Positions 964 to 56,807 are shown, counted from the first letter of the stretch. The stretch: DNA of 64,000 nt from an uncultured Gammaproteobacteria bacterium (GCA_964510885.1 CAZEDL010000001.1:312982-376981), one strand, 5' to 3'. Notes: generated from the letters alone by a model not told the origin. Made by a program: numbers and translations.

Positions 964-1046
964 TGTCATTCCCGCAAAAGCGGGAATTAACAATCACTTT
1001 GGACTTCGTTTAACTATCCTGGATTCCCGCTTTCGCGGGAATGACA
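964..1046. repeat. Family-A palindromic MITE-like element (copy A1), intergenic. Termini are TGTCATTCCCGC...GCGGGAATGACA, with two internal hairpins.
   Basis: Perfect terminal inverted repeats tgtcattcccgc/gcgggaatgaca seen directly. Internal hairpins cccgcaaaagcggg and cccgctttcgcggg. The same termini recur at six other loci in the window. Confidence 0.7.
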
Positions 1047-14141: not shown

Positions 14142-14363
14142 AGACCCTCCCTAGTTAGAGATAATTATAAGTAGTATACCAAAAAATTATACTTATCGCT
14201 ATGTGGAATGTTGATAAGTAACTGGAAACAAGATAAACTATGTGAGATTTCAAAAATCAATTTCTAATATCTGGCAAAAATTTCAATAGCTCATTTGAAA
14301 ATAGTAAATCTGACACCGTACTAGACATTAGAAATTGAACTATTTAAAAATTTCTATCCATTT

Positions 14364-17233: not shown

Positions 17234-17293
17234 AGGTCGATACCGGAAATGATGGAACACCTGAACGGTGTGAGTGAAACGCTTATTATGCTT

Positions 17294-17397
17294 TTCATTC
17301 CCGCCCCCGCTTACGCTGGGGGTAGACTCCGGCGGGAATCCAGTAATATTACTAGGCACTTATGCGACTGGATTCCCGTTTTCACGGGGATGACAAA
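17294..17397. repeat. Family-A MITE-like element (copy A2), a hybrid carrying a family-B-like core (CCCCGCTTACGCTGGGGGTAG)
   Basis: Termini tcattcccgcc...ggggatgaca, internal ggcgggaatccag / ctggattcccg inverted repeats. The core resembles B-family ccccgcttgggcggggtagggg. Confidence 0.6.
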
Positions 17398-27970: not shown

Positions 27971-28372
27971 ATGGAACGTATTACCACTATTGACCAATCA
28001 CTCTCCACCACGGTGGAGCAACCGGAAGCGATGGAGCTAAAAAAAGACGGGAAATTTTCTGATTTGTTTAATGTAATAGATGGTGTTATTAAAAATATTG
28101 ATATATCTCTAGCCCAAGCCAGCTTTGTGAGAAAAGCTCATCAAAAATTTTTTCCTCGATGGTTTTCGGCCTCAGACGCTATACGAATGAACAGTATTTT
28201 AGAGCAAGAAGAAACTCTCTATTCTGATTTAGTTGTCGATTCTGAATCAGGAATAATCAATTTTACTATCCAGTGTAAAATTCAAAAAAAGACACTGACC
28301 CGTTCTTTTCGTGGAATACTTAAATCGTTTAAGCGTGATAACCAAGAGATATATGGGATCGCTTGGGAGTAG
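27971..28372 (+). CDS. Hypothetical protein (133 aa) within the pur operon
   Basis: ORF only. Not PurS-like by eye. Confidence 0.3.
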   Translation: MERITTIDQSLSTTVEQPEAMELKKDGKFSDLFNVIDGVIKNIDISLAQASFVRKAHQKFFPRWFSASDAIRMNSILEQEETLYSDLVVDSESGIINFTIQCKIQKKTLTRSFRGILKSFKRDNQEIYGIAWE

Positions 28373-30845
28373 TACCCTCATTGATTTTTCTCTTCTGCCC
28401 GAAGGTGATATTGCTGACTGGCTCCAAAAAAACCACATTGGGTTAACTGTATCTGAAATTTTACATATTCAAAATACTATTCTGAAACGACCACCCACTT
28501 TGACGGAGTGTATTTTATGGTCAATCCAGGGGTCGGAGCATAGCTCCTACAAAAGTAGCCGACCTCATCTGAAACAATTTGCTACCAGTGGCCCGAGTGT
28601 CATGCTTGGGCCCGGTGAAGATGCGGGGATTGTAGAAGTCGCTCGAGATGCCGAGGGGCACCGGTATGGCATTGTGATGAGCCATGAGTCGCATAATAGC
28701 CCGTCACAAATTGTCCCCTACGAAGGCGCGGCAACTGGGGTGGGTGGCAATGTGCGCGATGTGGCATGCATGGGGGCCAAGGTGATTGCGAGCGCTGACC
28801 CGCTGCGCTTTGGTGATATTGCAAAAAATAAAACGAAATGGTTGACCGATGGCGTAGTCGCCGGCATTGCCGGGTATGGAAATCCTATCGGGGTACCGAT
28901 TATTGCAGGCGATATTTATTTTGATAAAAGTTACGATCCAAATTGTTTGGTGAATGTGGTTACGCTCGGCGTGGTGCGCGACGATGAGATTATTCACTCT
29001 CGCGCTCCTAGCAATGCCGACGGGTATAATCTCATTCTCGTTGGCAAGCCCACCGATAACAGCGGATTTGGTGGGGCGAGCTTTTCTTCGGTCGTGGTTG
29101 ATGAAACGAAAAAAGAAACCAACAGTGGCGCGGTGCAGCAGCCGAACGCCTTTCTCAAACGACATTTGCTGAAGGCGAGTTATGAATTGTTTAAGATTTT
29201 GAAAGCCAAAAATTTGATTGACCAGGTTGGATTCAAAGACTTGGGTGCAGGCGGGATTGCCTGCGTGTCGGTGGAGCTCGCTGACGCGGGTGACTATGGC
29301 GCTGAGGTGAACCTAGACTTAGTGCCGACGAGCATGGATAATTTAGCACCAGCGGTGATTCTGTGTTCGGAAACGCAAGAGCGATTTATGTGGGTGGCGT
29401 CGCCCGAGGTGACACCACTGATTTTAGAACATTATAATAAGACGTTTGATTTGCCGAAGATTGCCGGGGGCGCACAGGCCAAAGTAGTTGGTACGATTCG
29501 AGATGATGGGCAGTACATCGTTACCTTTAAGGGAGAAAAAGTTGTCGACGCACCGGCAAAAGAGGTGACACGGGGGTTGGTGTATGATCGACCCCATGTC
29601 AGATCTCAACGAGAATTGAGTGAGCCGGATATACCCGAACCGATCCCCTACTGTCATCCTGAGCAGGGCGAAGGACCCCTTAACGCAAACAATGCCTTGC
29701 AGTTAACTTTAAGGGATTCTTCGGCTGGGTCTCAGAATGACAAGTGGACATATAACGACATCCTCCTCAAAATTCTTTCTCACGAAAACGTTGCTTCCCG
29801 CGAGCCGATCTATGAACACTATGACAAAAATGTGCAAGGCATTACGGTGATCGAACCCGGTGAAGCTGATTCGGGCGTAATGCAACCCTTCAAAGATGAG
29901 ACATACCCTGCTGAAATTCGCTCCACGGGCGTTGCGCTATCAGTCGATCAAAACCCACGTTACTGCTTAGTAGATGCTTATTGGGGTGGAGTGAATGCAG
30001 TTGTTGAAGCGATGCGTAATGTGGCCGCGGTGGGAGCCTATCCGGTAGCATTGACGGATTGTCTGAATTTTGGCAATCCGGAAAAGCCGGAGGACATGGG
30101 AGTGTTCATCGAAGGAGTGCGGGGCGTGGCCGAAGCACAAACAGGGATTCATCTGCGAGATTTTCCCGACTCCCCTATCCCGATTATTTCGGGCAATGTA
30201 TCGCTTTATAAGCCGGTGGCACCGAGCCCGATTATTGCGTGTCTTGGTGCTATGCCTGATGCGAGCAAGGCGATTACGATGCACTTTAAAAAAGCTGACT
30301 CGGTCTTATTCGTGATTGGAGAGAGAAAAGATGAGTGTGGTGGAAGTGTGTATTATAGTCTATTCAACGAAGGGGTGGTGTTGGCTCCCTCCCATGCCGG
30401 AGGGGATGTTAGGTGGGGTGGGAGCAACACACTCCTCGGCGCCAATGTCCCTAAACCAAACCTAGCTGAAGTTGAAAGAGAGCTGCGTGCACTGACCGAG
30501 GCTATTCAAACTGGATTAATCCTAGCCGCCCATGATATTTCCGATGGCGGTATCGCGACGACACTCGCTGAGATGAGCTTTAGGAATGAAATTGGGTGCG
30601 ACGTGGCTATTCCGGGGGAACTTAGGACAGATAGAAAATTATTTGGCGAAAGTGGAGGCTGGGCGATTGAAGTTGAAAAACATCAGATTGATATGGTAAA
30701 AAATATTTTTGAAAAAAATAAACTAGAGCTACTAGAGATCGGGACTACTACCGCTGAAAAAAAATTACAGATGAACGGAGTCGTGACGGTTGATTTATCG
30801 GAAGCCAAAAAAATGTGGACAAATGGACTGAGAGAAAAATTATAG
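28354..30845 (+). CDS. purL: Phosphoribosylformylglycinamidine synthase subunit PurL (FGAM synthase II), carrying an in-frame MITE insertion at 29652-29742
   Basis: ILWSIQGSEHSSYKSSRPHLKQ...GPGEDAGIVEV..., the GNPIGVP and DxLNFGNPE regions, both AIR-synthase-like halves. The 31-codon insert YCHPEQGEGPLNANNALQLTLRDSSAGSQNDK is palindromic DNA. Confidence 0.85.
29652..29742. repeat. Family-A MITE-like element (copy A3) inserted in-frame inside purL
   Basis: tgtcatcctgagcagggcgaaggacccc...ctcagaatgaca. The internal ccttaacgc...aactttaagggattcttcg core is shared with copy A4. The ORF is uninterrupted across it. Confidence 0.75.
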
Positions 30846-35866: not shown

Positions 35867-36991
35867 GTGTCCAAAACGTTAGGCATTATCGGCGGCGGAC
35901 AATTAGGGCGCTTGCTCTGTGAAGCAGCGCGGTCGCTTGGGATACGCACGATCGTGCTTGACCCAACTCCAGATAGCCCGGCAGGACAAGTAGCAGATGA
36001 GCAAATAATTGGGGATTATAGAGATCCCGCTGCTATTAAAAAATTAGCTAAGCGAGTAGACGTATTGACTTGGGAAATAGAATCAACCAATGCTGCGGCA
36101 CTTATCAAACTCAAGGAGACAGGAATCAATGTAGAGCCATCACCCGAACAGCTACTGGTTATTCAAGATAAATTGTTGCAAAAAAAATTACTTCAACAGG
36201 CTGGCATTCCAGTGGCCGATTTTTGTGAATTATCAGACTCCAATGAATTGCCTCAAATTGCTAAGGAATATGGATATCCGTTTCTCTTGAAAGCGCGCTG
36301 CCAGGCCTTTGATGGAAGAGGGAATTATTTGGTTCGATCTGTGAAAGATATCCCAGCGGCCTTAGCGAAACTTGGAAAAGCTGATTTGTATGTGGAGCGG
36401 TATATTCCCTTTCAAAGGGAACTGGCTATTCAGGTGGCACGCAGCCAGAGCGGAAAAATTAGTCTTTTCCCGTTAGTCGAAACGATACAGAAAAATAATA
36501 TTTGCCATAGCGTGATGGCACCAGCGCGAGTTTCGGCAATAATTACGAAACAAGCTTTACTCATTGCCCAAAAAGTGGCGCGTGAGCTGAAAGGAGCAGG
36601 AGTATTTGGTATTGAATTCTTTTTGACTAGGGATAAGAAAATTGTGGTCAATGAAATTGCCCCGCGCGTGCACAATAGCGGGCACTATACGATCGAAGCG
36701 TGCAGTGTATCGCAATTTGAACAACACGTACGATTGGTGTGCGGGTTACCGGCTAAAAAAATTAAACTTATTTCATCAGCGGTAATGATTAATCTGCTAG
36801 GCGACCGCATGGGTCTGGCAGAATGGAAGGGTTTAGATAAAATTAATAAGCAAAAAAATGTATTTGTTCATGTATACGGCAAAGAAGAAGTTAAGCCGGA
36901 GCGGAAGATGGGGCACATCACGGTCTTAGGGAGAACTGCTGGAGTGGCTTGGCGAACAGCTTTGGAAATTAGGAAAAAGATTAGGATATAA
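35867..36991 (+). CDS. purK: N5-carboxyaminoimidazole ribonucleotide synthase (ATP-grasp)
   Basis: LGIIGGGQLGRLLCEAA Rossmann, ATP-grasp core, position next to purE. Confidence 0.8.
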   Translation: MSKTLGIIGGGQLGRLLCEAARSLGIRTIVLDPTPDSPAGQVADEQIIGDYRDPAAIKKLAKRVDVLTWEIESTNAAALIKLKETGINVEPSPEQLLVIQDKLLQKKLLQQAGIPVADFCELSDSNELPQIAKEYGYPFLLKARCQAFDGRGNYLVRSVKDIPAALAKLGKADLYVERYIPFQRELAIQVARSQSGKISLFPLVETIQKNNICHSVMAPARVSAIITKQALLIAQKVARELKGAGVFGIEFFLTRDKKIVVNEIAPRVHNSGHYTIEACSVSQFEQHVRLVCGLPAKKIKLISSAVMINLLGDRMGLAEWKGLDKINKQKNVFVHVYGKEEVKPERKMGHITVLGRTAGVAWRTALEIRKKIRI

Positions 36992-37029
36992 ATCAACAAG
37001 ATACCATATTAATTGGTAAAATAAATTAC

Positions 37030-37121
37030 TGTCATCCTGAACACAATGAAGGATCCCTTAACGCTATAATTAGTACAGAATTTTAACTTTAAGGGATTCT
37101 TCGCTACCGCTCAGAATGACA
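37030..37121. repeat. Family-A MITE-like element (copy A4), intergenic between purK and purE
   Basis: tgtcatcctgaacacaatgaaggatccc...ctcagaatgaca. The core is near-identical to copy A3. Confidence 0.75.
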
Positions 37122-37141: not shown

Positions 37142-37657
37142 ATGGTTAGTAATTATTTTATGAAAAAACCTTTGGTCGGCATTATTATGGGATCGGATTC
37201 AGATTTACCGCTGATGCAGGAATGCAGCGCCCAGCTCAAAGAATTTGGTATCGCCTATGAACTGACTATTGTGTCGGCTCATCGGACACCCAAGCGCATG
37301 GTGGCGTACGCCGAGGAAGCAGAGCATAAAGGATTACGAGTGATTATTGCTTGTGCGGGTGGCGCGGCGCACTTACCAGGGATGGCGGCATCGCTGACTA
37401 CTCTGCCGGTCATTGGGGTGCCAAGAGAATTAAAAACCTTAAAAGGCATTGATTCACTCCTATCTATTGCCCAGATGCCACCCGGAGTGCCGGTTGCGAC
37501 GATGGCGATCAATGGAGCCAAAAATGCAGCACTACTGGCGGTGCGGATGTTGGCTTTAAGTGATAATACCTTGGCCACTAAGCTTAAAAAATACCAGAAT
37601 GAATTGAAAAATTCAGTTGAGAAAAAGGCTCGGGCGTTAGAAAAAACGATTCGATGA
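37142..37657 (+). CDS. purE: N5-CAIR mutase (PurE)
   Basis: [36 protein letters not shown] motifs. Confidence 0.85.
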
Positions 37658-40550: not shown

Positions 40551-42020
40551 ATGAATATTTTACTTGTTGGTTCAGGAGCTCGTGAACATGCCATTGCTCG
40601 AGCTATAAAGAAATCAAAGACCGAGACGAATCTTTTTTGTTTTGGTTCAAGTCGGAACCCAGGAATTATAGAACTTGTTTGTCATTCCAACGACGAAGGA
40701 GAAATCTCTGTCCGACACGATAATAACACATTGAACCAGAGATCCCTCGTCGGCGCGAGCCTCGCTCGGGATGACAGTAATGCCTACCGCGTCGGAAAAT
40801 TGGATGACGTCACTTCGATACTACAATTTGCTAAAAAAAATAAAATCGATTGGGCGATTATTGGACCTGAGCTGCCGCTGTCAGTTGGCCTGGTGGATGA
40901 ATTGAAAGCAATTAGCATTCCCTGTATTGGACCGACTAAGCAATTAGCCCAAATTGAAACGAGCAAGGCCTTTGCGCGGGATTTACTTTCTTATCATGGC
41001 GTGCCCGGACTGCCCCAGTACAAACGATTTGATTTTTTTGAAGCACTGGAAGTGATACAGGAATATATTCATTCGCTTGATGATAATTATGTAGTGAAGG
41101 CTGACGGGCTCATGGGTGGTAAGGGGGTTAAAGTCTACGGCGAGCAGCTACAAAGTTTTGAGGATACACTGCAATTTATCTTAGAAATAAAAGCAGCCAA
41201 TAGCCCATTTGTAATCGAAGAAAAATTCGTGGGGCAAGAATTTTCACTGATTAGCTTTTGTGATGGGGTACACCTGGCCCATATGCCGGCAGTGCAAGAT
41301 CATAAACGGGCCTATGTTGGCGATACCGGACCTAATACGGGTGGTATGGGCAGTTATTCGGACAGCAATCACTCACTCCCTTTTTTAACTGAAAAAGATA
41401 TTGCCCAGGCTCAAAAAATAAATGAATTAACAGCAGCGGCACTACTCAAGCAATTTGGCGTACCCTACAAAGGCATCCTGTATGGTGGTTTTATGACTAC
41501 GGCAGAAGGGGTGAAACTGATTGAATATAACGCCCGCTTTGGCGATCCGGAAAGCATTAATGTCTTGGCGTTACTGGAAACTGATTTGGTGGAAATTTGT
41601 CAGGCGATTACCAGCGGCGCCTTAGACACTATAGAGATTAAGTGGAAAAATGTAGCCACTGTTTGTAAATATGTTGTACCCGAAGGATATCCTGATAATC
41701 CGGTAAAAAATCAAGTTGTCGATGTTTCGGAAGTTAAGGATGCAGATTCTTTATATTTCGCGGCAATTGATGAACGAGAAGGAAAATTATATGAAACTGG
41801 TTCGCGAGCCATTGCGGTATTGGGTGTAGGCACCACTATTACTGAAGCGGAACAAAAAGCCGAGGAAGAAATTAAACAAATTAAAGGTTCACTATTTCAT
41901 CGGGAAGATATTGGGACAGAGGAGTTGATTGAGAAGAGAGTTCAGATAATGAGTCAAATACGCAATGAACGCAATCCCCGCTTGGGCGGGGTAGGGGTGG
42001 GTGAGTCCGCTGAGCTTTAA
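40551..42020 (+). CDS. purD: Phosphoribosylamine-glycine ligase (GAR synthetase). It has an in-frame MITE insertion (40680-40777), and its last ~16 codons come from the left inverted repeat of the DUF559 element.
   Basis: MNILLVGSGAREHAIA, ATP-grasp core, C-terminal domain. Insert CHSNDEGEISVRHDNNTLNQRSLVGASLARDDSN is palindromic DNA. The C-terminus NPRLGGVGVGESAEL is encoded by a B-family half-site. Confidence 0.85.
   Translation: MNILLVGSGAREHAIARAIKKSKTETNLFCFGSSRNPGIIELVCHSNDEGEISVRHDNNTLNQRSLVGASLARDDSNAYRVGKLDDVTSILQFAKKNKIDWAIIGPELPLSVGLVDELKAISIPCIGPTKQLAQIETSKAFARDLLSYHGVPGLPQYKRFDFFEALEVIQEYIHSLDDNYVVKADGLMGGKGVKVYGEQLQSFEDTLQFILEIKAANSPFVIEEKFVGQEFSLISFCDGVHLAHMPAVQDHKRAYVGDTGPNTGGMGSYSDSNHSLPFLTEKDIAQAQKINELTAAALLKQFGVPYKGILYGGFMTTAEGVKLIEYNARFGDPESINVLALLETDLVEICQAITSGALDTIEIKWKNVATVCKYVVPEGYPDNPVKNQVVDVSEVKDADSLYFAAIDEREGKLYETGSRAIAVLGVGTTITEAEQKAEEEIKQIKGSLFHREDIGTEELIEKRVQIMSQIRNERNPRLGGVGVGESAEL
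40680..40777. repeat. Family-A MITE-like element (copy A5) inserted in-frame in purD
   Basis: tgtcattccaacgacgaaggagaaatctctg...cagagatccctcgtcggcgcgagcctcgctcgggatgaca. The right end is ~85% identical to the TIR of the GIY-YIG element. It is read in the same frame (TGT CAT ... GAC A) as copy A3. Confidence 0.7.
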
Positions 42021-42438
42021 GAGACATACTTATGTTAAACAATCAAACCCATAAAAATTATAAGCCCTCCCTTAAGCCACTCACTCGTCACTTACGTACG
42101 AATTCTACATTAAGCGAGGTTATTTTATGGAATCATCTTAAAAATCGAGGCTTATTAGGTTATAAATTTCGACGTCAAACTCCTATTTTAAATTATATTG
42201 TTGATTTTTATTGTAAAGAATTACAGTTAGCGATTGAGATTGACGGGATAACTCATGATGAAAAAATTGAGTATGATGTGGAGCGACAGAAAAAAATGGA
42301 AAAAGTTGGTATCTTTGTGTTACGGTTTCAAGATAGTGAAATTAAAAAGGATATTGATATTATCCTGCAACGAATTGTTGAGTGGGTAAACGGCCACGCA
42401 TCGCCCTCACCCACCCCTACCCCGCCCAAGCGGGGATT
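41973..42438 (+). mobile_element. Inverted-repeat-flanked element (family B, copy B1) carrying a DUF559/Vsr-like endonuclease gene, inserted at the purD/purN junction
   Basis: Left IR aatccccgcttgggcggggtaggggtgggtgag (41973-42005). Right IR ctcacccacccctaccccgcccaagcggggatt (42406-42438), its exact reverse complement. The DUF559 ORF lies between them. Confidence 0.7.
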
Positions 42439-43036
42439 GCTATCCAGTGACGCCGGTATACACCTTGCCATCCTCGGTTCCACACGCGGTACCAATCTGC
42501 AAGCGATTATTGATGCTATTGCAGAAAAAAAATTAAACGCTTATATCGATATCGTTATCAGCAATAAAGCCGATGCCTATATTTTGGAGCGCACCAAGCA
42601 ACATGGATTACGGGTCGTTTTTATCGATAGCAGAAATAAAAGCCGAGAACAGTTTGACCAAGAAGTTTTAAATGAATTAAAAAAATATCATATTGATCTC
42701 GTCCTGCTTATCGGTTACATGCGTATCCTCTCCCCCACTTTCGTACAGACGTATAGAAATAAAATTTTAAATGTTCACCCGTCCCTACTCCCCGCCTTTG
42801 CTGGCGGGATGGACATGAATGTACATGAAGAAGTGTTAAAATCAGGGGTGACAGAAACGGGTTGTACGATTCATCTGGTTGACGATGGAGTGGATACCGG
42901 CAAGATTTTGCTGCAAAAAAAATGTACCGTTGAACCAGGGGATACGGCGGAGAGTTTGAAAGATAAAGTGCAACAATTGGAGGGAGAAGCGTGGATTGAA
43001 ATATTAAAAAATTGCAATTTAACAGATACTTTCTAA
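42032..43036 (+). CDS. purN: Fusion ORF: an N-terminal DUF559 endonuclease-domain protein (Vsr/PD-(D/E)xK-like, ~125 aa) fused in-frame, through the right IR, to phosphoribosylglycinamide formyltransferase PurN. The PurN part is ~42437-43036, with a possible TTG start at 42437.
   Basis: DUF559 signature LRTNSTLSEVILWNHLKNRGLLGYKFRRQTPILNYIVDFYC...IEIDGITHDE...VLRF. PurN: LAILGSTRGTNLQAII, NVHPSLLPAFAG, DTGKIL. There is no in-frame ATG at the PurN N-terminus. Confidence 0.7.
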   Translation: MLNNQTHKNYKPSLKPLTRHLRTNSTLSEVILWNHLKNRGLLGYKFRRQTPILNYIVDFYCKELQLAIEIDGITHDEKIEYDVERQKKMEKVGIFVLRFQDSEIKKDIDIILQRIVEWVNGHASPSPTPTPPKRGLLSSDAGIHLAILGSTRGTNLQAIIDAIAEKKLNAYIDIVISNKADAYILERTKQHGLRVVFIDSRNKSREQFDQEVLNELKKYHIDLVLLIGYMRILSPTFVQTYRNKILNVHPSLLPAFAGGMDMNVHEEVLKSGVTETGCTIHLVDDGVDTGKILLQKKCTVEPGDTAESLKDKVQQLEGEAWIEILKNCNLTDTF

Positions 43037-43040
43037 TTTT

Positions 43041-44732
43041 ATGAATCTTTCCCTCACCCCTATCACTCGCGCCCTCATCTCCGTCTCTGATAAAACCGGC
43101 ATTATTGCTTTTGCCGAAAAATTAGCTGAAAAAAATGTGGAAATTATTTCCACTGGCGGGACGGCCAAAGCCCTCGTGGAAGCAGGGATTCCGGTCATTG
43201 AAATTTCTGATTTCACTGGTTTCCCAGAAATGATGAATGGCCGAGTAAAAACCCTTCACCCCAAAGTTCATGGCGGCATTCTGGGCCTCAGGGACGCACA
43301 CGCGAGTACTGCCGCCGAGCATGGAATCAAGTGGATCGATTTGGTGGTGTGTAATCTATATCCATTCGCTGCCACTATTCAGAAACCGGGCGTGAGTGAA
43401 GACGAAGCGATTGAGAATATTGATATCGGCGGGCCGAGCATGATAAGGAGTGCGGCCAAAAATGTGGGGTGGGTCGGGGTAGTGGTTGATCCGTCAGATT
43501 ATGAGTTTGTGAAGGGTGAATTAGAAACACAAGGCGGAATCACGATCGAGACGCGAAAAAGATTATCAGCCAAAGCATTTGGGCATACGGCGGCATATGA
43601 TGCGCTGATCAGTAATTATTTTAATGCAGAGCCATTCCCCAGCGAGCTGACACTCGGCTACAAAAAATTCTATGATTTGCGCTATGGAGAAAACCCGCAT
43701 CAGCTCGCTTGCGTGTATCAAGAATCAATACCGACTGATCAGAATGTACTCGGGGCAATCATTCATCAAGGTAAGCAGCTCTCCTACAACAATATTAACG
43801 ATGCGGATGGCGCGTGGTTCACTCTCAGGGAATTCCCTGAGCCGACCTGCGTGGTAGTAAAACATGCTAATCCATGTGGGGTGGCAAGCGATAGCGATAT
43901 TACTGTAGCATTTAAACGGGCCTATGCAGCGGATGCGCTCTCGGCCTTTGGTGGTGTCATTGCTTTGAATCGACCGTGTACCGCAGCTATTGCTGAGGAG
44001 ATAGCCAAAGTCTTTGCCGAAATTGTGTTGGCTCCTTCATATGAAACTAAGGCTTTGGAAGTATTGGCACCAAAAAAGAATTTACGAGTGTTAGAAATGA
44101 AGAGAGAGGCGGCTGTACATAACACACAAAATCCCCGCTTGGGCGGGGTAGGGGTGGGTGAGACCTTTGCGTCGCCGGACTCAACGACCTCACCCACCCC
44201 TGGCCTGTGGGCCACCCCCGCCCAAGCGGGGATTGTCCGTCGACCAGTTTATAAATCTGAACTAAAAAACAATTCACCGTTAGAGTATCGTTTTATTAAT
44301 GGTGGACTGCTCGTACAGGAGCAAGATACTAAAGAGATAACTCTGCCTGACCTCAAAATTGTCACTGCTAAACAACCAAGCGAACAAGAATTACAAACTA
44401 TGCTGTTTGCCTGGAAAGTCTTGAAACACATGAAATCAAATGCGATTTTGGTTGCCAAAGACAATACCACGGTGGGAGTTGGTGTGGGGCAGGTGTCGCG
44501 CGTGGATGCGGTGGATATCGCGCTCAAGAAAGCTGGAGATCGCTTGAACGGCTCAATTTTGGCCTCTGATGCCTTCTTCCCTTTTCGCGATAGTATTGAT
44601 AAACTGGCGGGAACTGGAATTACCGCCATCATTCAACCGGGCGGGTCAGTGAAAGACAAGGAAGTGATCGAGGCCTGCAACGAGCATGGGATTGCGATGG
44701 TGTTTACGGGAGTGAGGTGTTTTAAGCATTAA
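43041..44732 (+). CDS. purH: Bifunctional AICAR transformylase/IMP cyclohydrolase, with an in-frame 35-codon palindromic insert (44130-44234)
   Basis: MGS-like N-terminus RALISVSDKTGI, AICARFT core. Insert NPRLGGVGVGETFASPDSTTSPTPGLWATPAQAGI is encoded by B-family half-sites. Confidence 0.9.
   Translation: MNLSLTPITRALISVSDKTGIIAFAEKLAEKNVEIISTGGTAKALVEAGIPVIEISDFTGFPEMMNGRVKTLHPKVHGGILGLRDAHASTAAEHGIKWIDLVVCNLYPFAATIQKPGVSEDEAIENIDIGGPSMIRSAAKNVGWVGVVVDPSDYEFVKGELETQGGITIETRKRLSAKAFGHTAAYDALISNYFNAEPFPSELTLGYKKFYDLRYGENPHQLACVYQESIPTDQNVLGAIIHQGKQLSYNNINDADGAWFTLREFPEPTCVVVKHANPCGVASDSDITVAFKRAYAADALSAFGGVIALNRPCTAAIAEEIAKVFAEIVLAPSYETKALEVLAPKKNLRVLEMKREAAVHNTQNPRLGGVGVGETFASPDSTTSPTPGLWATPAQAGIVRRPVYKSELKNNSPLEYRFINGGLLVQEQDTKEITLPDLKIVTAKQPSEQELQTMLFAWKVLKHMKSNAILVAKDNTTVGVGVGQVSRVDAVDIALKKAGDRLNGSILASDAFFPFRDSIDKLAGTGITAIIQPGGSVKDKEVIEACNEHGIAMVFTGVRCFKH
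44130..44234. repeat. Family-B palindromic MITE-like element (copy B2), with no cargo gene, in-frame inside purH
   Basis: aatccccgcttgggcggggtaggggtgggtgag ... ctcacccacccctgg..cccgcccaagcggggatt. Both half-sites are the same as those flanking the DUF559 gene. Confidence 0.75.
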
Positions 44733-44738
44733 TTTACT

Positions 44739-44880
44739 TGTCATTGCGAGGAGTGATCCCGATTCGCATCGGGAGAACGACGAAGCAATCCCTTTGATTT
44801 CAGAACTACTTAAAATTAAAAATACCCCTGCAAACAAGGGGATTGCCACGTCTTCGCTTGGGCTCCTCCTCGCAATGACA
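44739..44880. repeat. Family-A MITE-like element (copy A6), nested palindromes, intergenic between purH and the amidohydrolase
   Basis: tgtcattgcgaggag...ctcctcgcaatgaca outer IR. Inner hairpins atcccgattcgcatcggga and aatcccc..ggggatt. The terminal cAATGACA supplies an in-frame ATG to the downstream ORF. Confidence 0.7.
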
Positions 44881-44892
44881 CAGTATCATTTT

Positions 44893-46266
44893 ATGAATAA
44901 CTTCTCTCGTTCCCCTCGCTATAACGTACTCAAACCAGACCATGAGCCCAAGCGAATTCTTATTCATGGATTACGTTTTATATTGACTAGCAGCGAATCT
45001 GAGAGATTAAGTGTGGTACCCGACCAATCATTACTTATTGAGGACGGAGAAATCACTGAGCAATTTCCTAAAAAAGAATTGGACAAAAGGGTTGATCTCA
45101 AAACCATCGATCTCATTTATGATGCCGAACAAAAAGGTGGAATTGTTGCAACGCCGGGCTTTATAAATCTACATTCTCATCCGCCGATGTATCTGCTGCG
45201 CTCCACCCTTACACTGGCTGAGGATAATTTGGAAGAAGCGCTGCGCGGCATGGCGAAGCTCGAAGCCAAAATGAATACTGAGGATTTTTACCTCGGAGCA
45301 CTCGGTGACTTTACGGAGCAGCAAAAATCAGGAATCACGACTACGCTCAGCCACTATGGCGTGTTCGATCCGATTGAGCGAGCGGCGAGTGAATCGGGAC
45401 AGCAGGTTATTAATTGCTTATCGGCAGCAAGCAATTCACATCCAGAGAATACGCCAGCCTTGGTAGAAAAGTACTTGAAGAAAAAAAATACGGTGACTAC
45501 GCCTGGTATTGCCCTGCACTATGTGTGGAAAGCAACTCCACCGACGCTGAAAAAGATTGCCGCTTTGATTAAAAAATACAACGCGTACTTTACGGTGCAT
45601 GTGGCCGAGAGCGAACAGACCGTGGAGCGGTGCCTCGAGGCCTATGGCGAGCGGCCGGTGGCAGTCTTGGCCAAATATGATTTACTGGGGCCGCGAACGA
45701 TCATTAGCCATGCGGTCCATTTGACTCCCGAAGAAATTAGCATCATTAAAAAAACAGGGACTATCGTGGTGCACCTGCCTACTTCGAATTTGTTGCATCG
45801 TTCAGGACAATTTAAGTATACAGAATTTTCGCGGCAGCAAGCCAAACAGTTGATTACGCTCGGGACTGATAGCGTGATCAGTAAGAATCGGCTGGATTTA
45901 CTGAGCGAAGCGTTGGCCATGAAGACGTTGCATCAGGCTAAAGAAATTATTTCGTACGAAGAATTATTTAATGTGCTCACGGCACAACCGGCTAAGCTCC
46001 TCGGATTAAAAAAGCTCGGTCAGATTAAACCGGGCTTTACGGCGAATTTGTGTTTTTGGAAGCTGAAAGATCGAGGGCTATTGCCGTATGATGAGGACCA
46101 TCCGGAAACTCTGGTGAGTAATTTAATTACTCATGGGAGTCGCGGAGTGCGGGATTTGATGATTAAGGGGCGATTTGTTATTAGTAATCGGTATCATAAT
46201 TTGGTGGATGAGAGTGGGCTATTGGAGAAACTACAGACAGCACATATGGAACTGAGAAAACGTTAA
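44893..46266 (+). CDS. Amidohydrolase-superfamily protein (metal-dependent deaminase-like, e.g. guanine/adenosine-type). The six-frame ORF starts at 44794, inside the MITE.
   Basis: GFINLHSHPPMY metal-binding HxH, and later H and D ligands (VHVAES, HAVHL, GTDS). Confidence 0.6.
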   Translation: MNNFSRSPRYNVLKPDHEPKRILIHGLRFILTSSESERLSVVPDQSLLIEDGEITEQFPKKELDKRVDLKTIDLIYDAEQKGGIVATPGFINLHSHPPMYLLRSTLTLAEDNLEEALRGMAKLEAKMNTEDFYLGALGDFTEQQKSGITTTLSHYGVFDPIERAASESGQQVINCLSAASNSHPENTPALVEKYLKKKNTVTTPGIALHYVWKATPPTLKKIAALIKKYNAYFTVHVAESEQTVERCLEAYGERPVAVLAKYDLLGPRTIISHAVHLTPEEISIIKKTGTIVVHLPTSNLLHRSGQFKYTEFSRQQAKQLITLGTDSVISKNRLDLLSEALAMKTLHQAKEIISYEELFNVLTAQPAKLLGLKKLGQIKPGFTANLCFWKLKDRGLLPYDEDHPETLVSNLITHGSRGVRDLMIKGRFVISNRYHNLVDESGLLEKLQTAHMELRKR

Positions 46267-46273
46267 TTTCTAC

Positions 46274-46688
46274 TGTCATCCCGAGGAACGAGGGATCCCC
46301 TGGTTTGAGTAAGTAGTAAATAAGCAGAAATATATATGTTACAACCAACTTACTACATCTACTTCCTCATGAACGCCTATCATAGTGTCCTGTATGTGGG
46401 TGTTACCAATGATTTAGCCAGACGTATTTCAGAACATAAACAGCATTTAATTCCTGGTTTTACCAAAAAATATAATGTTGATAATTTAGTTTATTGCGAA
46501 TCATTTAGTGATATTAATCAAGCAATTCAACGAGAGAAAGAATTGAAGGGGTGGCGACGTTCGAAAAAATTAGAATTAATAAAAAGCATCAATAGTGACT
46601 TAAGAGATTTGAGTAAGGAGTGGGAGTAATTTTTTATTATTTTACTGGGCACTGCATACAGGGGGATCCCTCCTTCGTCGGGATGACA
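46274..46688 (+). mobile_element. Inverted-repeat-flanked element (family A, copy A7) carrying a GIY-YIG nuclease gene
   Basis: Left TIR tgtcatcccgaggaacgagggatcccc (46274-). Right TIR ggggatccctccttcgtcgggatgaca (-46688). The two are ~28 bp, reverse complements of each other, ~85% identical. A single 97-codon ORF lies between them. Confidence 0.7.
46336..46629 (+). CDS. GIY-YIG family nuclease (URI-domain, YhbQ/COG2827-like)
   Basis: YYIYFLMNAYHSVLYVGVTNDLARRISEHK...REKELKGWRRSKKLELI matches GIY..YIG, the catalytic R and E, and the KxWxRxxK tail. Confidence 0.8.
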   Translation: MLQPTYYIYFLMNAYHSVLYVGVTNDLARRISEHKQHLIPGFTKKYNVDNLVYCESFSDINQAIQREKELKGWRRSKKLELIKSINSDLRDLSKEWE

Positions 46689-46704
46689 AGAACGATTGAA
46701 CTTG

Positions 46705-48180
46705 CTACTCCCCCACTCGATAATTCGGTGCCGAACGCATTTCGCGCAAATCATGCGGGTGACTCTCTTTGAGACCGGCATTACTGATTTTAACGAGTAC
46801 TGCTTTCTGATGTAGTTCTTTTATCGTAGCGGCACCGACATACCCCATACCACTGCGGAGACCGCCGGCGAGTTGGTACAGAATCCGATCAACAGGTCCT
46901 TTATAGGCCACACGGCCGCTCACGCCCTCGGGAACAAATTTAGTTTTTTCTTTGACTTCGGCCTGGCCATAGCGATCTTTACTGCCACGCTCCATAGCTT
47001 CCATGCTGCCCATGCCGCGGTAGACTTTGAACATGCGGCCATCAATATATTCTACGCGGCCAGGTGATTCATCGGTACCGGCAAACATGTTGCCCATCAT
47101 CACCGTGTCGGCACCGGCAGCGAGCGCCTTCACAATATCACCAGACGTTTTTATTCCTCCGTCAGCGATAATAAGCGGATGTTTTTTTGTTTTTTTAAAT
47201 GCTGCAGCCACATCAAGAACGGCTGAAAGTTGCGGCACCCCGACTCCGGCTATAATACGCGTGGTACAGATAGAACCCGGGCCAATGCCTACTTTTACCG
47301 CATCGGCGCCAGCGGCGGCAAGGGCGAGAGCTGCAGTGCCGGTGGCGATATTACCTGCGATAATAGCCTGATCTTTGTAGGCTTTACGCAGGCGTTTCAC
47401 GGCGTTTATTACTCCACTCGAATGCCCATGGGCGGTATCTACGACCAGCACATCAACCCCGGCTCGAATGAGCGCTTCGGCCCGCTCAAAACCCGCATCG
47501 CCTACCCCGACTGCGGCACCGACCCGCAATTGCTTGGCAACGTTCTTGGCAGCGTCTGGATAGAGCTCGTTTTTTTCCATGTCTTTACGGGTCACGATGC
47601 TGACTAATTTTCCGGCCGTGTCGACAATACACAGGGTCTTGAGTTTATTTTTACGGATCATGGCATTCGCTTCCTCTAGGCGCATACCTGCTTGACCAAC
47701 TATTAATTCAGCGACGCTTTGCATCCGGAATTTGACCATAAGGTCGTTATCGTCTGGAGCAAAATAATCAACATCACTAATAAGACCGACGAGAACACCC
47801 TTACTATCTACCACGGGAATTTTCTTATAACCCTGCTCGGTGCGTAATTGCTGTACAAGGCTAATTTTATCTTCTGGTTTGACCGTGACGGGATTTTCAA
47901 TAAAGCCGTTTTCAAAACGCTTGACGCGCTGCACTTCGAGCACCTGTTCATCGATTGAAAGATTTTTATGAATAATGCCCATGCCACCAGCCAAGGCAAG
48001 TGCGATAGCCATTTTGTGCTCGGTAACGGTATCCATAGGTGCACTTAAAAAGGGCAATTGCAGCTTGATATCTGGCGTGAGCCAGGTCGCGAGCTCGGTG
48101 TCTTTGGGCAATAGATCAGAGGCTTGGGGCACGAGCAAGACATCGTCAAAGGTGAGCGTTTCTTGGAGAGGGGTAAACAT
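46705..48180 (-). CDS. guaB: IMP dehydrogenase (with CBS pair)
   Basis: [11 protein letters not shown], catalytic [31 protein letters not shown] subdomain. Confidence 0.9.
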
Positions 48181-48700: not shown

Positions 48701-50536
48701 ATGGAAGCCTCTAAAAATGAAATTGCAATTCTCGACTTTGGATCACAGTATACCCACCTCATTGCCCGGCGGATCAGAGAATTAGGAGTGGTTTCACACA
48801 TTTATCCGACCGATATAGCGGCCAAAAACCTTAAAAACGTAGTCGGCATTATTCTCTCGGGGGGGCCAAAAAGTGTCGTACGGGAAGAGACTCTCCCCTA
48901 TGACAAAGATATTTTTGATCTCGGAATTCCGATCTTGGGGCTCTGCTATGGCCACCAACTCATGGCCATGCATTTTGGTGGAGTGGTCGGAGCGGGTAGT
49001 GCTCGGGAATACGGGCAAGCCGAGCTAACGGTACAGGCTTCACCCATCTTCAAGAATATCCCTAAGCGCTCAACGGTGTGGATGAGTCATGGCGATCATG
49101 TATCGGTCGTCCCGCCGGGTTGGCAGGCTATTGCGGATAGTGGCGGCGAGGCAGTGGCGGCCATGGAATACTCCGAAAAAAAATGGTACGGATTCCAATT
49201 TCATCCGGAGGTGTATCACTCCGCGCACGGGAAAAAGATGTTAAGTAATTTTGTGTTTGATATCTGCGGAGCCAGCAAGAATTGGGATTCCAAAACGCAA
49301 CTGAAAACGGTAAGTGAAGAAATTAAACAGGCCGCGGGAGATAAAAATGTCTTTTTACTGGTGAGTGGAGGCGTGGATTCTACGGTCTGTTTCGCACTCC
49401 TTGAAAAAATACTGGGCAAGAATCGGGTGTACGGTTTGCATGTAGATAGTGGCCTCATGCGTCTTGATGAGAGTAAGAAAATTACTCGGGCTCTAAAACA
49501 AACTGGCTTTTCTAACTTACACGTTTATCACGCAGAAAAAGAATTTTTAAATCGACTAAAAGGAATTATTGAACCAGAACAAAAAAGAAAAATCATTGGC
49601 GACACCTTCCTCGACATCGTGGATCGGGTGATGAAAGAAAAAAACATGGATTCTGGTGGATGGCTCGTTGGCCAAGGCACCATTTACCCCGATACGATTG
49701 AATCCGGAGGAACCAAACATGCGGTGGTGATCAAAACTCACCACAACCGCGTGCCACGGATCCAGCAGATGATTGCGGAGGGAAAAATTATTGAACCGCT
49801 GAAAGAGTTATACAAAGATGAGGTGCGGGCAATTGGGCGCCAGCTTAAGCTACCAAAAGAATTAATTGAGCGGCATCCGTTCCCGGGGCCAGGACTGGGG
49901 ATTCGGATTTTGTGTTCAAAGGGGTCGAAAGAGAGAGCTACACCTATTGAAGGTGATAGATTCCCGCTGCTACGCGGGAATGACACTGAGGATAGTAATA
50001 CACTCTATTCCCTACCAATTAAATCCGTCGGTGTGCAGGGTGACGAACGATCGTATTCGCATCCAGCCATTATTATTGGGAACAGTCTGGCCGAAGAGAA
50101 AAAAATCTGGAAGACCATTCACACTCTAGCACCAGCTATTACCAATCAACATCATGAAGTGAATCGCGTGATGCTGCCTGTGCTGGGAGACAGAAAAAAA
50201 ATCTTGACATCGCGTGTGCATGCGGCAACCCTGACTAAAAAGCGAATTGCACTATTACAAAAAATCGATGCTATCGTGCATCGTTATGTGCTGGCAGCTA
50301 AATCATGTAGCCACATTTGGCAATTGCCGGTGGTGTTGGTGCCGTTTGGTTATAAGCACAGAGAATCAATCGTGCTCCGACCATTTCAATCCGAAGAAGT
50401 GATGACCGCTTCGTTTGCCCTGATCCCATGGCCAGTACTCAAAAAAATTCTGGCAGCGATTGCGAGGCTGAAAGCAGTTGATTTTGTGTTTTATGATGTG
50501 ACGAATAAGCCTCCTGGTACTATTGAATGGGAATAA
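48701..50536 (+). CDS. guaA: GMP synthase (glutamine-hydrolysing)
   Basis: GATase ILDFGSQYTHLIARRIRELGV, catalytic LGLCYGHQ, HPE. PP-loop VSGGVDSTV. C-terminal dimerisation domain. Confidence 0.9.
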   Translation: MEASKNEIAILDFGSQYTHLIARRIRELGVVSHIYPTDIAAKNLKNVVGIILSGGPKSVVREETLPYDKDIFDLGIPILGLCYGHQLMAMHFGGVVGAGSAREYGQAELTVQASPIFKNIPKRSTVWMSHGDHVSVVPPGWQAIADSGGEAVAAMEYSEKKWYGFQFHPEVYHSAHGKKMLSNFVFDICGASKNWDSKTQLKTVSEEIKQAAGDKNVFLLVSGGVDSTVCFALLEKILGKNRVYGLHVDSGLMRLDESKKITRALKQTGFSNLHVYHAEKEFLNRLKGIIEPEQKRKIIGDTFLDIVDRVMKEKNMDSGGWLVGQGTIYPDTIESGGTKHAVVIKTHHNRVPRIQQMIAEGKIIEPLKELYKDEVRAIGRQLKLPKELIERHPFPGPGLGIRILCSKGSKERATPIEGDRFPLLRGNDTEDSNTLYSLPIKSVGVQGDERSYSHPAIIIGNSLAEEKKIWKTIHTLAPAITNQHHEVNRVMLPVLGDRKKILTSRVHAATLTKKRIALLQKIDAIVHRYVLAAKSCSHIWQLPVVLVPFGYKHRESIVLRPFQSEEVMTASFALIPWPVLKKILAAIARLKAVDFVFYDVTNKPPGTIEWE

Positions 50537-50572
50537 TGAAAAAAACCTGCGACAGACGCAGGTTTTTTAGTA

Positions 50573-52042: not shown

Positions 52043-52366
52043 ATGTGGGCATTACCTCCCTAAGTTCGCTTATTTATCAATAATACGATATACCCCACCG
52101 TACACTATCAGAATGCCGCCAGCAGTCCACCACCAGCCGTATTGGCCAGAAAAATAGCCGCTGACATAGGCCATGAGGCAAATACTGGCAGCGATGAAGG
52201 CTACCATATGGCGGATAAAATTATCGGTCATATGAAGTTACACAGAAAGCAAATGTCAGGAGTTACGTAGTTTTTATTTTTATCAGTATACCATTTTTAG
52301 AGAAAAAAATGAACAGGGTAATTAAAAAATCTTGCTGAGGAGCAAGATTTTTTGTGATTTTAACCG

Positions 52367-55325: not shown

Positions 55326-55440
55326 AGCAGGAAATATCTAAAAAATATAAGGAAATTAAAGCTGCGGAGATGATAGCGAGTTTTGATTGGTTTGACAAGT
55401 GGACAAGGGGGAAATTTTTGTTGAATTTTGTTAACTACTA

Positions 55441-55469
55441 TTGACAAATTCTGTGATATATGCTAGTGT
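55441..55469 (+). promoter_or_regulatory. Promoter-like motif TTGACAAAT-N11-TGCTAG upstream of GC-rich islet 3 gene (shared with 55996-56024)
   Basis: ttgacaaattctgtgatatatgctagtgt, then SD GGAG and ATG at 55514. Confidence 0.4.
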
Positions 55470-55813: not shown

Positions 55814-55995
55814 CTTCCCTACCCACCACCAGACACCCCACAACCCACTGAGACTCAGTGCGGCAAATAGAAGAATCCCCAACTGTCTTTATCTAGTAAT
55901 TATTTTAATAGGTAAAGACAGGGATTACTTCTAAAGTAAGTGAATAACTCTGCTATATAGCGGGGTTATTTTTTTATACATTTTGTAAATTAAAC

Positions 55996-56024
55996 TTGAC
56001 AAATTTTTAAATATGTGCTAGCTT
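55996..56024 (+). promoter_or_regulatory. Promoter-like motif TTGACAAAT-N11-TGCTAG upstream of GC-rich islet 4 lipoprotein gene, followed by the palindrome tagcttcatcacaagcta
   Basis: ttgacaaatttttaaatatgtgctagctt. Spacing and both boxes are identical to 55441-55469. Confidence 0.4.
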
Positions 56025-56655: not shown

Positions 56656-56776
56656 CGCCCCCAACCCCTGCCCCATCCCGATCCGCATCGGGACAGCGTG
56701 GCCCGAATCAATCCCCTGCCTTTCGTTCTCTAGTAGTTAGCTAGTAGCGAGCGAAAGGGGTTGACTTCGAGAGAAT

Positions 56777-56807
56777 TAAAAAATCCTGCTTCTAGGCAGG
56801 ATTTTTT
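56777..56807. terminator. Bidirectional rho-independent terminator between the convergent lipoprotein and hypothetical genes
   Basis: aaaaaatcctgc-ttctag-gcaggatttttt: a perfect 8-bp stem flanked by an A-run and a T-run. Confidence 0.7.

Follow-up and report, generated by a model that had tools for sequence, protein, structure and literature searches.

The window analysed here is a 64,000-nucleotide stretch (CAZEDL010000001.1:312982-376981, positions counted from its first letter) of a metagenome-assembled genome, and the labels of its homologues point to a relative of the Magasanikbacteria, within Patescibacteria (CPR, for candidate phyla radiation), as the source. A purine operon lies on its plus strand, with genes assigned by Pfam and by alignment to solved structures, and in and around this operon are palindromic repeat elements of two families, A and B, some of which are read in frame within purL, purD and purH (Table 1). 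Two of the elements enclose genes for small nucleases: A7 carries a GIY-YIG gene, and B1, at the purD/purN junction, carries a DUF559 gene. The elements were compared with proteins (P numbers) and loci (L numbers) of relatives and of metagenome contigs. The seven family-A copies and two family-B loci listed in an initial annotation of this DNA are all present where it had placed them; that reading missed both nuclease genes, as well as a solitary B-type arm in purL.

Table 1. Repeat elements and genes of the window, with positions and strands
Feature	Position	Strand	Description
A1	964-1046	.	Head-to-head dimer of CGTC-1/NTS-type hairpins; intergenic, downstream of prepilin peptidase gene
A2	~17292-17395	.	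NTS-type dimer, left terminus decayed to TTTCAT; upstream of corA
A3	29652-29742	.	91-bp dimer in frame in purL; net insertion ~96 bp
A4	37030-37121	.	A3 subfamily; between purK and purE
A5	40680-40776	.	97-bp dimer in frame in purD; net insertion 99 bp (40680-40778)
A6	44739-44880	.	142-bp dimer, arms TGTCATTGCGAGGAG...GCAATCCC; between purH and amidohydrolase gene
A7	46274-46688	.	415-bp element; inverted arms TGTCATCCCGAGGAACGAGGGATCCCC enclose GIY-YIG gene
B1	41973-42440	.	Full-length, 468 bp; inverted arms AATCCCCGCTTGGGCGGGGTAGGGGTGGGTGAG around DUF559 gene; at purD/purN junction
B2	44130-44235	.	106-bp miniature; both arms, no nuclease gene; in frame in purH, encodes NPRLGGVGVGETFASPDSTTSPTPGLWATPAQAGI
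Solo degenerate B-type arm	~30384-30425	+	Hairpin CCCTCC/GGAGGG and tail TTAGGTGGGGTGGG; in frame in purL; found by motif scan
purL ORF	28311-30845	+	Pfam and solved-structure match; carries A3 and the solo B-type arm
purK	35867-36991	+	
purE	37142-37657	+	
purD	40551-42020	+	A5 inside; 3' end from B1 left arm
DUF559-PurN ORF	42032-43036	+	334 residues; DUF559 at 17-118, translated right arm SPSPTPTPPKRG, PurN at 145-324
purH	43041-44732	+	Carries B2
Amidohydrolase gene	44794-46266	+	Downstream of purH
GIY-YIG nuclease gene, putative, Ssn-like	46336-46629	+	97 residues, single domain; PF01541, E 5e-17
Predicted junction peptides			Within: YCHPEQGEGPLNANNALQLTLR; across: PKRGLLSSDAGIHLAILGSTR

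Family A elements and known hairpin repeats

Each family-A copy consists of two inverted arms and a spacer, and all seven are head-to-head TGTCAT...ATGACA dimers. The string TGTCATYSY occurs 17 times in the window against 3.8 expected, a count that no shuffle reached. At least four subfamilies can be distinguished (A1/A2, A3/A4, A5, A6 and A7, of which A5 and A7 might group together). A1 to A6 are gene-less copies, and A7 is the gene-carrying unit, with the layout repeat-ssn-repeat. A2 probably lies upstream of the true start of corA, likely an internal Met, and hence is intergenic, not inside corA. Folding of the A1 arms gives -9 kcal/mol, with z values of -5.3 and -5.8, and the arms of A3 to A7 are composed of the TGTCAT tag, an AT-initiated closing stem of 5 bp, a CCC tail and loops of 9-40 nt.

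Chenal et al. (2025, PMC11893778) described the Neisseria repeat NTS, CGTCATTCCCGCGMAVGCGGGAATCYRG, as an extended dRS3, and tied NTS and the related SRM hairpins across phyla to SsnA, a single-domain GIY-YIG protein of 94 residues whose gene typically has the repeat on both flanks (NTS-ssnA-NTS). Single-stranded DNA next to the hairpin is cut by SsnA, whose demonstrated activity is that of a nuclease and not of a transposase, and through SsnA the NTS-gene-NTS arrangement reduces transformation in N. meningitidis (PMC11893778). The CGTC-tagged REP superfamily of Di Nocera et al. (2013, PMC3733652), in which the tag is often TGTC, the stems start with AT and the tails are CCA-like, occurs mostly as head-to-head dimers. 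It takes in dRS3 together with the Rickettsia palindromic elements (RPE) RPE-4 and RPE-6 of Rickettsia conorii, which are equated with CGTC-4 and CGTC-1 repeats, and its members have already been reported within open reading frames (ORFs) of known proteins (PMC3733652).

The arm at 1019-1046 (TGTCATTCCCGCGAAAGCGGGAATCCAG), which is the right arm of A1, equals the NTS consensus at all positions except the first. The published SRM search pattern, HGTCWYN(0-2)YYVSBRHN(0-5)WNVSBRGN(0-2)RNCYNB, is matched by two arms in the window, that of A1 and the right arm of A2 (17368-17395), against 0.23 expected. Examined by eye, both arms of A1 show the (C/T)GTC tag, AT-initiated stem of 8-9 bp, 4-5-nt loop and CCA-like tail that define these repeats, and the right arm alone matches the SRM pattern. 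The protein encoded within A7 contains PF01541 over residues 6-78 and gives no further Pfam match; among solved structures, its closest counterparts are UPF0213 proteins, at weak similarity (E 1.4e-3). In addition, a GIY-YIG homologue with 50% identity lies on a related metagenome contig (L181), where A6-type arms stand on its flanks. The A7 gene thus encodes a putative Ssn-like nuclease, and family A, whose best copies match by sequence, probably belongs to the CGTC-REP/NTS/SRM superfamily, a described kind of repeat with a described partner nuclease, which occurs here in a new lineage. A3 to A7 are placed with SRM because of their TGTCAT tag and shared architecture, the position of A7 around a GIY-YIG gene, and the L181 homologue with its A6-type arms.

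These comparisons change several earlier statements. For family A, neither the proposal of a candidate new family nor the claim that the repeats are unrelated to RPEs is supported, since one arm agrees with the NTS consensus save for its first base and fits the SRM pattern, and the superfamily contains RPE-4 and RPE-6 (PMC3733652). The term MITE-like (miniature inverted-repeat transposable element) is loose, as neither a target-site duplication nor a transposase was seen and the partners are small nucleases. A relationship between families A and B is unproven, and only a similar GC-rich stem is common to both.

Some smaller features of the element ends were also recorded. When a shared target motif was sought at the element boundaries, only the tetranucleotide YTAC was found, directly before TGTCAT in three of the seven copies (CTAC at 29648-29651 for A3, TTAC at 37026-37029 for A4 and CTAC at 46270-46273 for A7); it may either belong to the element or represent a favoured target. 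A5 ends in ...ATGACAGTA. The left arm of A2 (17297-17345) has a second GC hairpin (CCCCCGCTTACGCTGGGGG, then TAG) nested in its loop, which resembles the start of a B-type arm, and in metagenome loci the B miniature elements often adjoin or sit within A-type termini (e.g. ...GGGGAATATTCGAAATGACA in L107). These two observations suggest that the repeats insert into one another.

Insertions within PurL, PurD and PurH

The insert in PurD comprises 33 residues (CHSNDEGEISVRHDNNTLNQRSLVGASLARDDS). P0002, the closest ortholog with 73% overall identity, does not have it, nor do almost all of the other orthologs; its empty site can be read directly in L003. Similarly, the PurL insert of about 32 residues (YCHPEQ...SQNDK) is missing from P0242 (79% identical), P0243, P0244, P0246 and P0248, and the 35-residue insert of PurH is missing from both relatives examined, L003 and L005. 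All three inserts fall in gaps of the alignments to solved structures. By these alignments, they are true in-frame insertions of 32-35 residues and not conserved native sequence, which bears out the earlier proposal of in-frame, stop-free palindromes in purL, purD and purH.

The three in-gene elements are 91, 97 and 106 bp long, each 1 modulo 3. A3 and A5 are read in the same element-relative frame, TGT CAT ... GAC A, as had been stated, and for A3 this is the sole stop-free frame of six. The in-gene copies are open in the frame used, and the intergenic A4 is closed by stops in all six. In the AlphaFold model of PurD, the mean predicted local distance difference test (pLDDT) value is 85.5, and values below 50 occur only at residues 47-74, in the A5 insert, and 477-489, in the tail from the B1 arm. 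Neither segment has secondary structure, and the insert is located between the helix at 37-44 and the strand at 79-81.

Further copies were expected outside this locus, and they were found in relatives and in metagenome loci. Among the matches listed, the metagenome B arms are internal to long ORFs in 24% of cases, compared with 49% of random positions, and outside any long ORF in 36%, compared with 14% at random; thus the B elements are depleted from genes, far from excluded. Pfam-confirmed in-frame B copies occur in topoisomerase I, GyrB, a ClpB-like ATPase, Tgt, UvrD and LigA, and further in PriA, MnmA, a Mur ligase and a radical-SAM protein. In related metagenome contigs, gyrB, topA, ligA, uvrD, tgt and further genes hold such arms in frame, and the concentration in one biosynthetic operon that had been reported was a local impression. 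For the in-gene B arms, at least four reading frames are in use (SPLGRGRGGL, PRLGGVGVG, QPTPTPPKRG and NPPLPRPSGE).

The loop of PurL that receives A3 holds different inserts in at least nine other lineages, drawn from several repeat families: the A5 subfamily in P0245, the CGTC-1 type in P0253 (VIPAQAGIQ...DSRFHGNDN), and B-like hairpins in P0272 and P0276. Repeated insertion is also seen at three further sites in PurL, at one in PurH and at that in PurD, and in L004 an A3/A4-type element occupies a purD codon boundary identical to that of A5 in the window. Because unrelated repeat families with different partner nucleases are found in the same loops, tolerance of the loop is a better explanation of this recurrence than recognition of a site. 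Throughout the clade, in-frame insertion is general and looks like the outcome of a selection filter. The RPE-like behaviour noted by the initial annotation, in which a palindromic repeat in frame in a coding gene adds a peptide at a tolerated site, is confirmed.

Other peptide-coding inserts were seen in the same enzymes. The PurL orthologs P0247, P0264 and P0321 from other CPR lineages contain a further, unrelated peptide-coding repeat family (motifs e.g. N.QI..NIQNYKSTNGIRNFVDSHTSVDSHH) in these same PurL loops, at alignment columns ~535-590 and ~730-760. The PurH orthologs of L003 (7895-9592) and L005 (4956-6623) have inserts of their own at another, common site after NYFN; that of L003 is of family-A type (SVIARSEERTTSQSP...LPRNDA), and that of L005 is a different palindromic insert. 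Both orthologs also have small inserts near the C-terminus, RLPDGQA and PLRQGFGGQA.

B1 and the DUF559-associated repeats

The family-B 19-mer AATCCCCGCTTGGGCGGGG occurs four times in the window against 0.02 expected, as two inverted pairs that make up B1 and B2. The arms follow one design, a GC hairpin and then a TAGGGGTGGGT tail; the right arm of B2 holds an extra small hairpin, and the B2 architecture is common among metagenome copies. The solo B-type arm in purL is common only to the window and its closest ortholog, P0242. The DUF559 domain of B1 (PF04480, E 5e-33) keeps all 22 invariant alignment columns; PDB 3hrl is its closest solved structure (E 2.6e-17), and the NCBIfam YcjD equivalog is matched below cutoff only. 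A survey of PD-(D/E)XK nucleases grouped DUF559 with Vsr and the homing endonuclease I-Bth0305I.

At the purD/purN junction, purD takes its final 15 codons and its stop from the left arm of B1, and the DUF559 ORF begins eleven bases later, runs through the right arm and enters PurN without a stop. The B half-site that had been noticed at the 3' end of purD is this left arm of the 468-bp element. Removal of 41973-42439 by hand would restore a stop for purD (TGA at 42448) and, for purN, a plausible start (ATG at 41965, MNALSSDAGIHLAILGS), from which we infer that B1 landed in a short purD/purN overlap. In relatives, purD and purN abut in L003 and overlap by ATGA in L004, and PurN is free-standing in both.

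The same DUF559 element is present in L005, with nearly identical arms and the same 334-residue in-frame PurN fusion, and likewise in L086, at the end of purD, with the right arm as the last part of the contig. The junction is thus filled in the window, L005 and L086, and it is empty in L003, L004, P0003, P0004 and P0007. In the neighbour-joining tree of PurD, non-carriers stand between the three carriers (the sister of the window protein is P0002 and that of the L005 protein is P0007, and P0003-P0005 are also empty), which implies either two to three gains at one site or three to four precise losses. Synonymous sites are saturated in all comparisons of the three carriers; consequently, the copies are old, and vertical descent is inseparable from ancient transfer. 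The nonsynonymous divergence (dN) is lowest for DUF559 (0.12-0.13), compared with 0.18 for PurN and 0.27 for PurD, and the arms plus a short leader are identical at 55/61 and 39/44 positions. The low dN of DUF559, together with the conserved arms, shows that purifying selection has long acted on both the nuclease and the B1 arms. In the window as in L005, 8 linker residues separate the arm from the PurN core, and in L005 this linker offers no alternative in-frame start, so that PurN is probably made as a DUF559 fusion protein. The junction is fused otherwise in the clade as well, P0081 (632 residues) and P0117 (629 residues) being natural PurD-PurN fusion proteins.

A word-seeded search returned 1,671 relatives of DUF559, and an exhaustive search returned 21,032 clusters at 50% identity with E<=1e-3, or 8,676 with E<=1e-10. 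Most relatives are free-standing proteins of 120-140 residues. Their C-termini read PTPTPPKRG, PTPNPSREGN or PLPRPSGE, and some N-terminal extensions read PRLGGVGVG or PLPGGVRGG; by their sequence, these terminal peptides are the two arms in translation. The conserved PTPxPxxxG tails arise because the right arm overlaps the end of the DUF559 ORF (median 28 nt).

Eighty DUF559 loci from species-representative genomes were picked on protein similarity alone, and 70 of them had enough flank. Compared with displaced controls, a flanking inverted repeat scores above the 95th percentile at 54/70 loci, the median scores being 21.25 and 9.0. One arm design, a GC-rich stem-loop followed by (T)TAGGGGTG(G/T)GT directed toward the gene, is found across Bacteroidota, Planctomycetota, Nitrospirota, Cyanobacteria, Ignavibacteriota, Actinomycetota and Patescibacteria. 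The strict hairpin plus AGGGGTGGGT motif occurs on the left flank of 30/70 loci, on the right flank of 34/70 and on both flanks of 23/70, compared with a single match in up to 280 control strand-windows. DUF559 genes and these hairpin repeats are accordingly associated across genomes.

At least 120 metagenome stretches, mostly from Hainich groundwater, contain an exact copy of the 27-nt arm of the window's B subfamily, which is absent from the viral contigs searched. Partner arms of the B copies were found by an outer-hairpin search. Among the matches listed, 151 B arms show 141 distinct outer flanks; 50 arms are in miniature pairs (~90-110 bp, B2-like) and 79 are solo, and among the 80 loci tested for DUF559, such a gene lies beside only 2-3 of the arms or arm pairs. 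Such a large number of repeats per few enzyme genes is the pattern of REP/RAYT and SRM/Ssn.

The chances appear evenly balanced that DUF559 is the enzyme of its own hairpin-repeat class (GC stem-loop plus AGGGGTGGGT tail), which would be a third partnership beside RAYT-REP and Ssn-SRM, present in many phyla, seeding in-frame peptide insertions in essential genes of CPR bacteria, and with B1 kept at the purD/purN junction over saturated synonymous divergence, its nuclease ORF providing the start of PurN. The literature on DUF559, COG2852 and Vsr-like proteins with repeats gave no account of a DUF559-repeat partnership, in a search whose incomplete coverage makes this weak evidence of novelty; the pairing is likely undescribed so far. 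The same limit applies to RPE-like elements in CPR bacteria, of which no earlier description was found.

Several further observations concern the arms and the domain. Upstream of a Bacteroidales DUF559 gene (L016, 2342-2457), the hairpin-plus-tail arm occurs three times in tandem (CTTTGAAGCTCCCCTCCTGGGAGGGGTGGGGGTGGGTTT), and several DUF559 proteins have C-terminal extensions of repeated KPTPxPSxEGN units, which together indicate that arms can form arrays. Elsewhere DUF559 is fused to further, unrelated proteins of the host, namely a class II aldolase, a methyltransferase, an inositol monophosphatase and ThiE, and it is found inside restriction-modification methylases; some of these fusions may be genuine domain architectures.

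Interpretation and comparison with known systems

Based on the results presented above, we regard it as quite probable that this CPR genome harbours two classes of selfish, nuclease-linked palindromic repeats, whose in-gene copies survive through a filter of frame, stop codons and loop position. Class A consists of TGTC-tagged hairpin dimers, of a superfamily whose partner Ssn cuts single-stranded DNA beside the hairpin. Class B comprises full-length B1 with its DUF559 protein (Vsr-like, PD-(D/E)XK), B2 as a miniature derivative, and the decayed solo arm in purL. Copies would land widely, and essential genes would retain only in-frame, stop-free insertions in permissive surface loops. Such a filter would account for the apparently unstructured peptides of 32-35 residues in PurL, PurD and PurH, and for the many repeat families in the same loops of relatives. 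The inserts would then be translated as disordered surface loops, and their survival in essential genes would reflect selection. On its arrival at the purD stop and purN start, B1 would have given PurD its present C-terminus and stop through the left arm, with the nuclease ORF now reading into PurN. The spread itself would be driven by the encoded nucleases, acting on hairpins in single-stranded DNA during replication or uptake and followed by repair or copying.

Several points weigh against this explanation. No filled/empty polymorphism was seen in this genome, so that movement has no direct sign, and neither by eye nor by script was a target-site duplication found at any of the nine element boundaries. 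B1 is ancient, given its saturated synonymous sites, and may now be fixed or domesticated and not mobile. For the role of the nucleases, Ssn is known as a nuclease and not a transposase, and the activity of DUF559 is putative. The arms of A3 to A7 do not match the published SRM pattern, and their placement relies on the tag, the architecture and two GIY-YIG associations; moreover, their 5-bp stems fold as single-stranded DNA no better than shuffled sequence, which limits the hairpin argument to A1, A2 and B. That the inserts and the DUF559-PurN fusion are translated is a prediction, and in the window PurN could have a start of its own at the in-frame TTG at 42437. Finally, the source is metagenome-assembled, with independent assemblies for the A7 region only.

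A different account of the recurrence at single sites is homing, in which the nucleases would recognise specific empty sites (the purD/purN junction and the loops of PurD and PurL) and the element would be copied in by break repair. The junction filled in three lineages and empty in their sisters, with its two to three gains or three to four precise losses, is what homing would produce, the family-A inserts of the window and L004 share one purD codon boundary, and the DUF559/Vsr clade includes I-Bth0305I, a proven homing endonuclease. However, those two purD inserts come from different A subfamilies, and the sharing of the PurL loop by unrelated repeat families with different partner nucleases speaks for loop tolerance. 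The diversity of flanks among the listed B arms and the presence of gene-less copies are atypical for homing genes. In addition, no extra similarity surrounds B1 between the window and L005, hence no co-conversion tract, and the saturated synonymous sites of DUF559 exclude recent transfer. On this evidence, homing seems unlikely. A domesticated host function, in which the repeats would limit recombination or transformation of the flanked genes or structure the mRNA and their clustering at purine genes would be adaptive, is a distinctly doubtful reading. It finds a precedent in the NTS-gene-NTS units that lower transformation in N. meningitidis through SsnA, and it fits both the location of 7/9 listed elements within 18 kb around the purine genes and the strong long-term purifying selection on DUF559 and the arms. 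On the other hand, a scan of 36.9-47 kb gave promoter-like and terminator-like sites without enrichment in the operon, the in-gene copies add apparently unstructured peptides, and the insert positions and families differ between close relatives, which indicates turnover and not a conserved layout. The purine clustering, moreover, was noticed post hoc, and in relatives the purine genes alone were examined.

That the inserts are removed before the mature protein forms, in the manner of introns or inteins, would leave the enzymes unaltered and would resolve the puzzle of four essential enzymes that tolerate insertions; the elements can also form long RNA hairpins. This is nevertheless very improbable: Rfam at gathering thresholds found one tRNA and nothing else in the whole window, and no group I or II intron in the operon; 31-35 residues are far below intein size, and Pfam gave the enzyme domains and DUF559 but no intein domain. 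The frame and the stop-free state, restricted to the in-gene copies, are what translation predicts, whereas splicing needs neither. As short repeats can mislead assemblers and the genome is metagenome-assembled, mis-joining of repeats into genes must also be considered, but it is hardly credible. Each in-gene copy restores the flanking frame exactly, two independent Logan assemblies (L001 and L002) match the window with 100% identity over 45787-47509, in the A7 region, and similar in-frame inserts occur in dozens of independent assemblies. The reading preferred here remains that of selfish nuclease-linked repeats with a survival filter.

The new part of the finding is the DUF559-associated repeat class and its conserved PurN fusion. 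Protein-coding palindromic repeats, best known from Rickettsia, are extended to the CPR, in which the permissive loops of housekeeping enzymes collect several unrelated repeat families, and the Ssn/SRM system gains a clear case of gene-less copies within genes. For DUF559, with ~21,000 clusters at 50% identity and no assigned role, the results point to a function as the partner of a conserved hairpin repeat; if the protein, like Ssn, were specific for hairpins or for single strands, there would be a second family of programmable enzymes that cut single-stranded DNA. A selfish gene tied to an essential one would have a simple natural example in the DUF559-PurN fusion, and if the nuclease ORF provides the translational start of PurN, B1 would be hard to lose.

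Other repeats in the window and its relatives were noted apart from families A and B. An AT-flanked hairpin (AAAAAATCYTGC...GCARGATTTTTT) occurs three times at gene ends (50535-50568, 52320-52353 and 56774-56807); by their appearance these copies are ordinary bidirectional intrinsic terminators, with no relation to the two families. A direct repeat of 300 nt with 64% identity (10647-10946 and 11313-11612), inside an ORF of 1873 residues on the minus strand (7151-12772), probably reflects a protein domain repeated within that ORF. Two copies of 60 nt that share 72% identity (55407-55466 and 55962-56021), with TTGACAAAT...N...TAT(A/G)TGCTAG, look like duplicated promoter regions. In L003, two DDE transposase genes (DDE_Tnp_1 and ISL3; 12908-15724) follow the purine operon of that relative, which means that conventional insertion sequences also occur in the clade.

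Among known systems, NTS/SRM-SsnA is similar to family A in that the A1 and A2 arms fit the NTS consensus and the SRM pattern, A7 has the layout repeat-ssn-repeat, the enclosed gene encodes a protein of ~95 residues with a GIY-YIG domain only, and several repeat subfamilies occur side by side. The likeness to Ssn is known from domain architecture, the activity here being putative. The differences are the arms of A3 to A7, which with 5-bp stems and loops of 9-40 nt are outside the pattern, the CPR host, and the in-gene fraction, 2/7 family-A copies here against ~2% reported for N. meningitidis (PMC11893778). With the CGTC REPs and RPE-4/RPE-6, family A shares the CGTC/TGTC terminal tag, the AT-initiated stem, the CCA-like tail and the head-to-head dimers; as with RPEs (Ogata et al. 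2002, as cited in PMC3733652), in-frame copies lie in genes of known proteins, to which they add 20-30 or more residues. In contrast, the phylum and the subfamilies are different, and the link to RPEs runs through the equation made by Di Nocera et al. No dedicated enzyme was known for CGTC REPs in 2013, whereas here a GIY-YIG gene lies inside one copy.

Both families resemble REP/REPIN-RAYT in having many gene-less hairpin copies, often as inverted doublets, and rare copies that flank an enzyme gene. They differ in that the partners are GIY-YIG and PD-(D/E)XK proteins and not Y1 (IS200/IS605-type) transposases, strand-transfer chemistry is known for neither the GIY-YIG nor the DUF559 nuclease, and there is no 5' GTAG tag. 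With free-standing homing genes such as that of I-Bth0305I, B1 has in common the grouping of DUF559 with Vsr and a patchy presence at one precise site between conserved genes; unlike them, it has inverted hairpin arms and abundant gene-less derivatives elsewhere, with no intron or intein context and no sign of recent transfer. MITEs derived from insertion sequences (Coxiella QMITE1, Correia) are likewise short, non-coding and bounded by inverted repeats, and some overlap ORFs and add peptides. Here, however, neither a target-site duplication nor a DDE transposase partner was found, and the termini are hairpins, not simple inverted repeats. Taken together, the comparison indicates that the window presents a known phenomenon in a new lineage, combined with a nuclease-repeat pairing that has likely not been described before.

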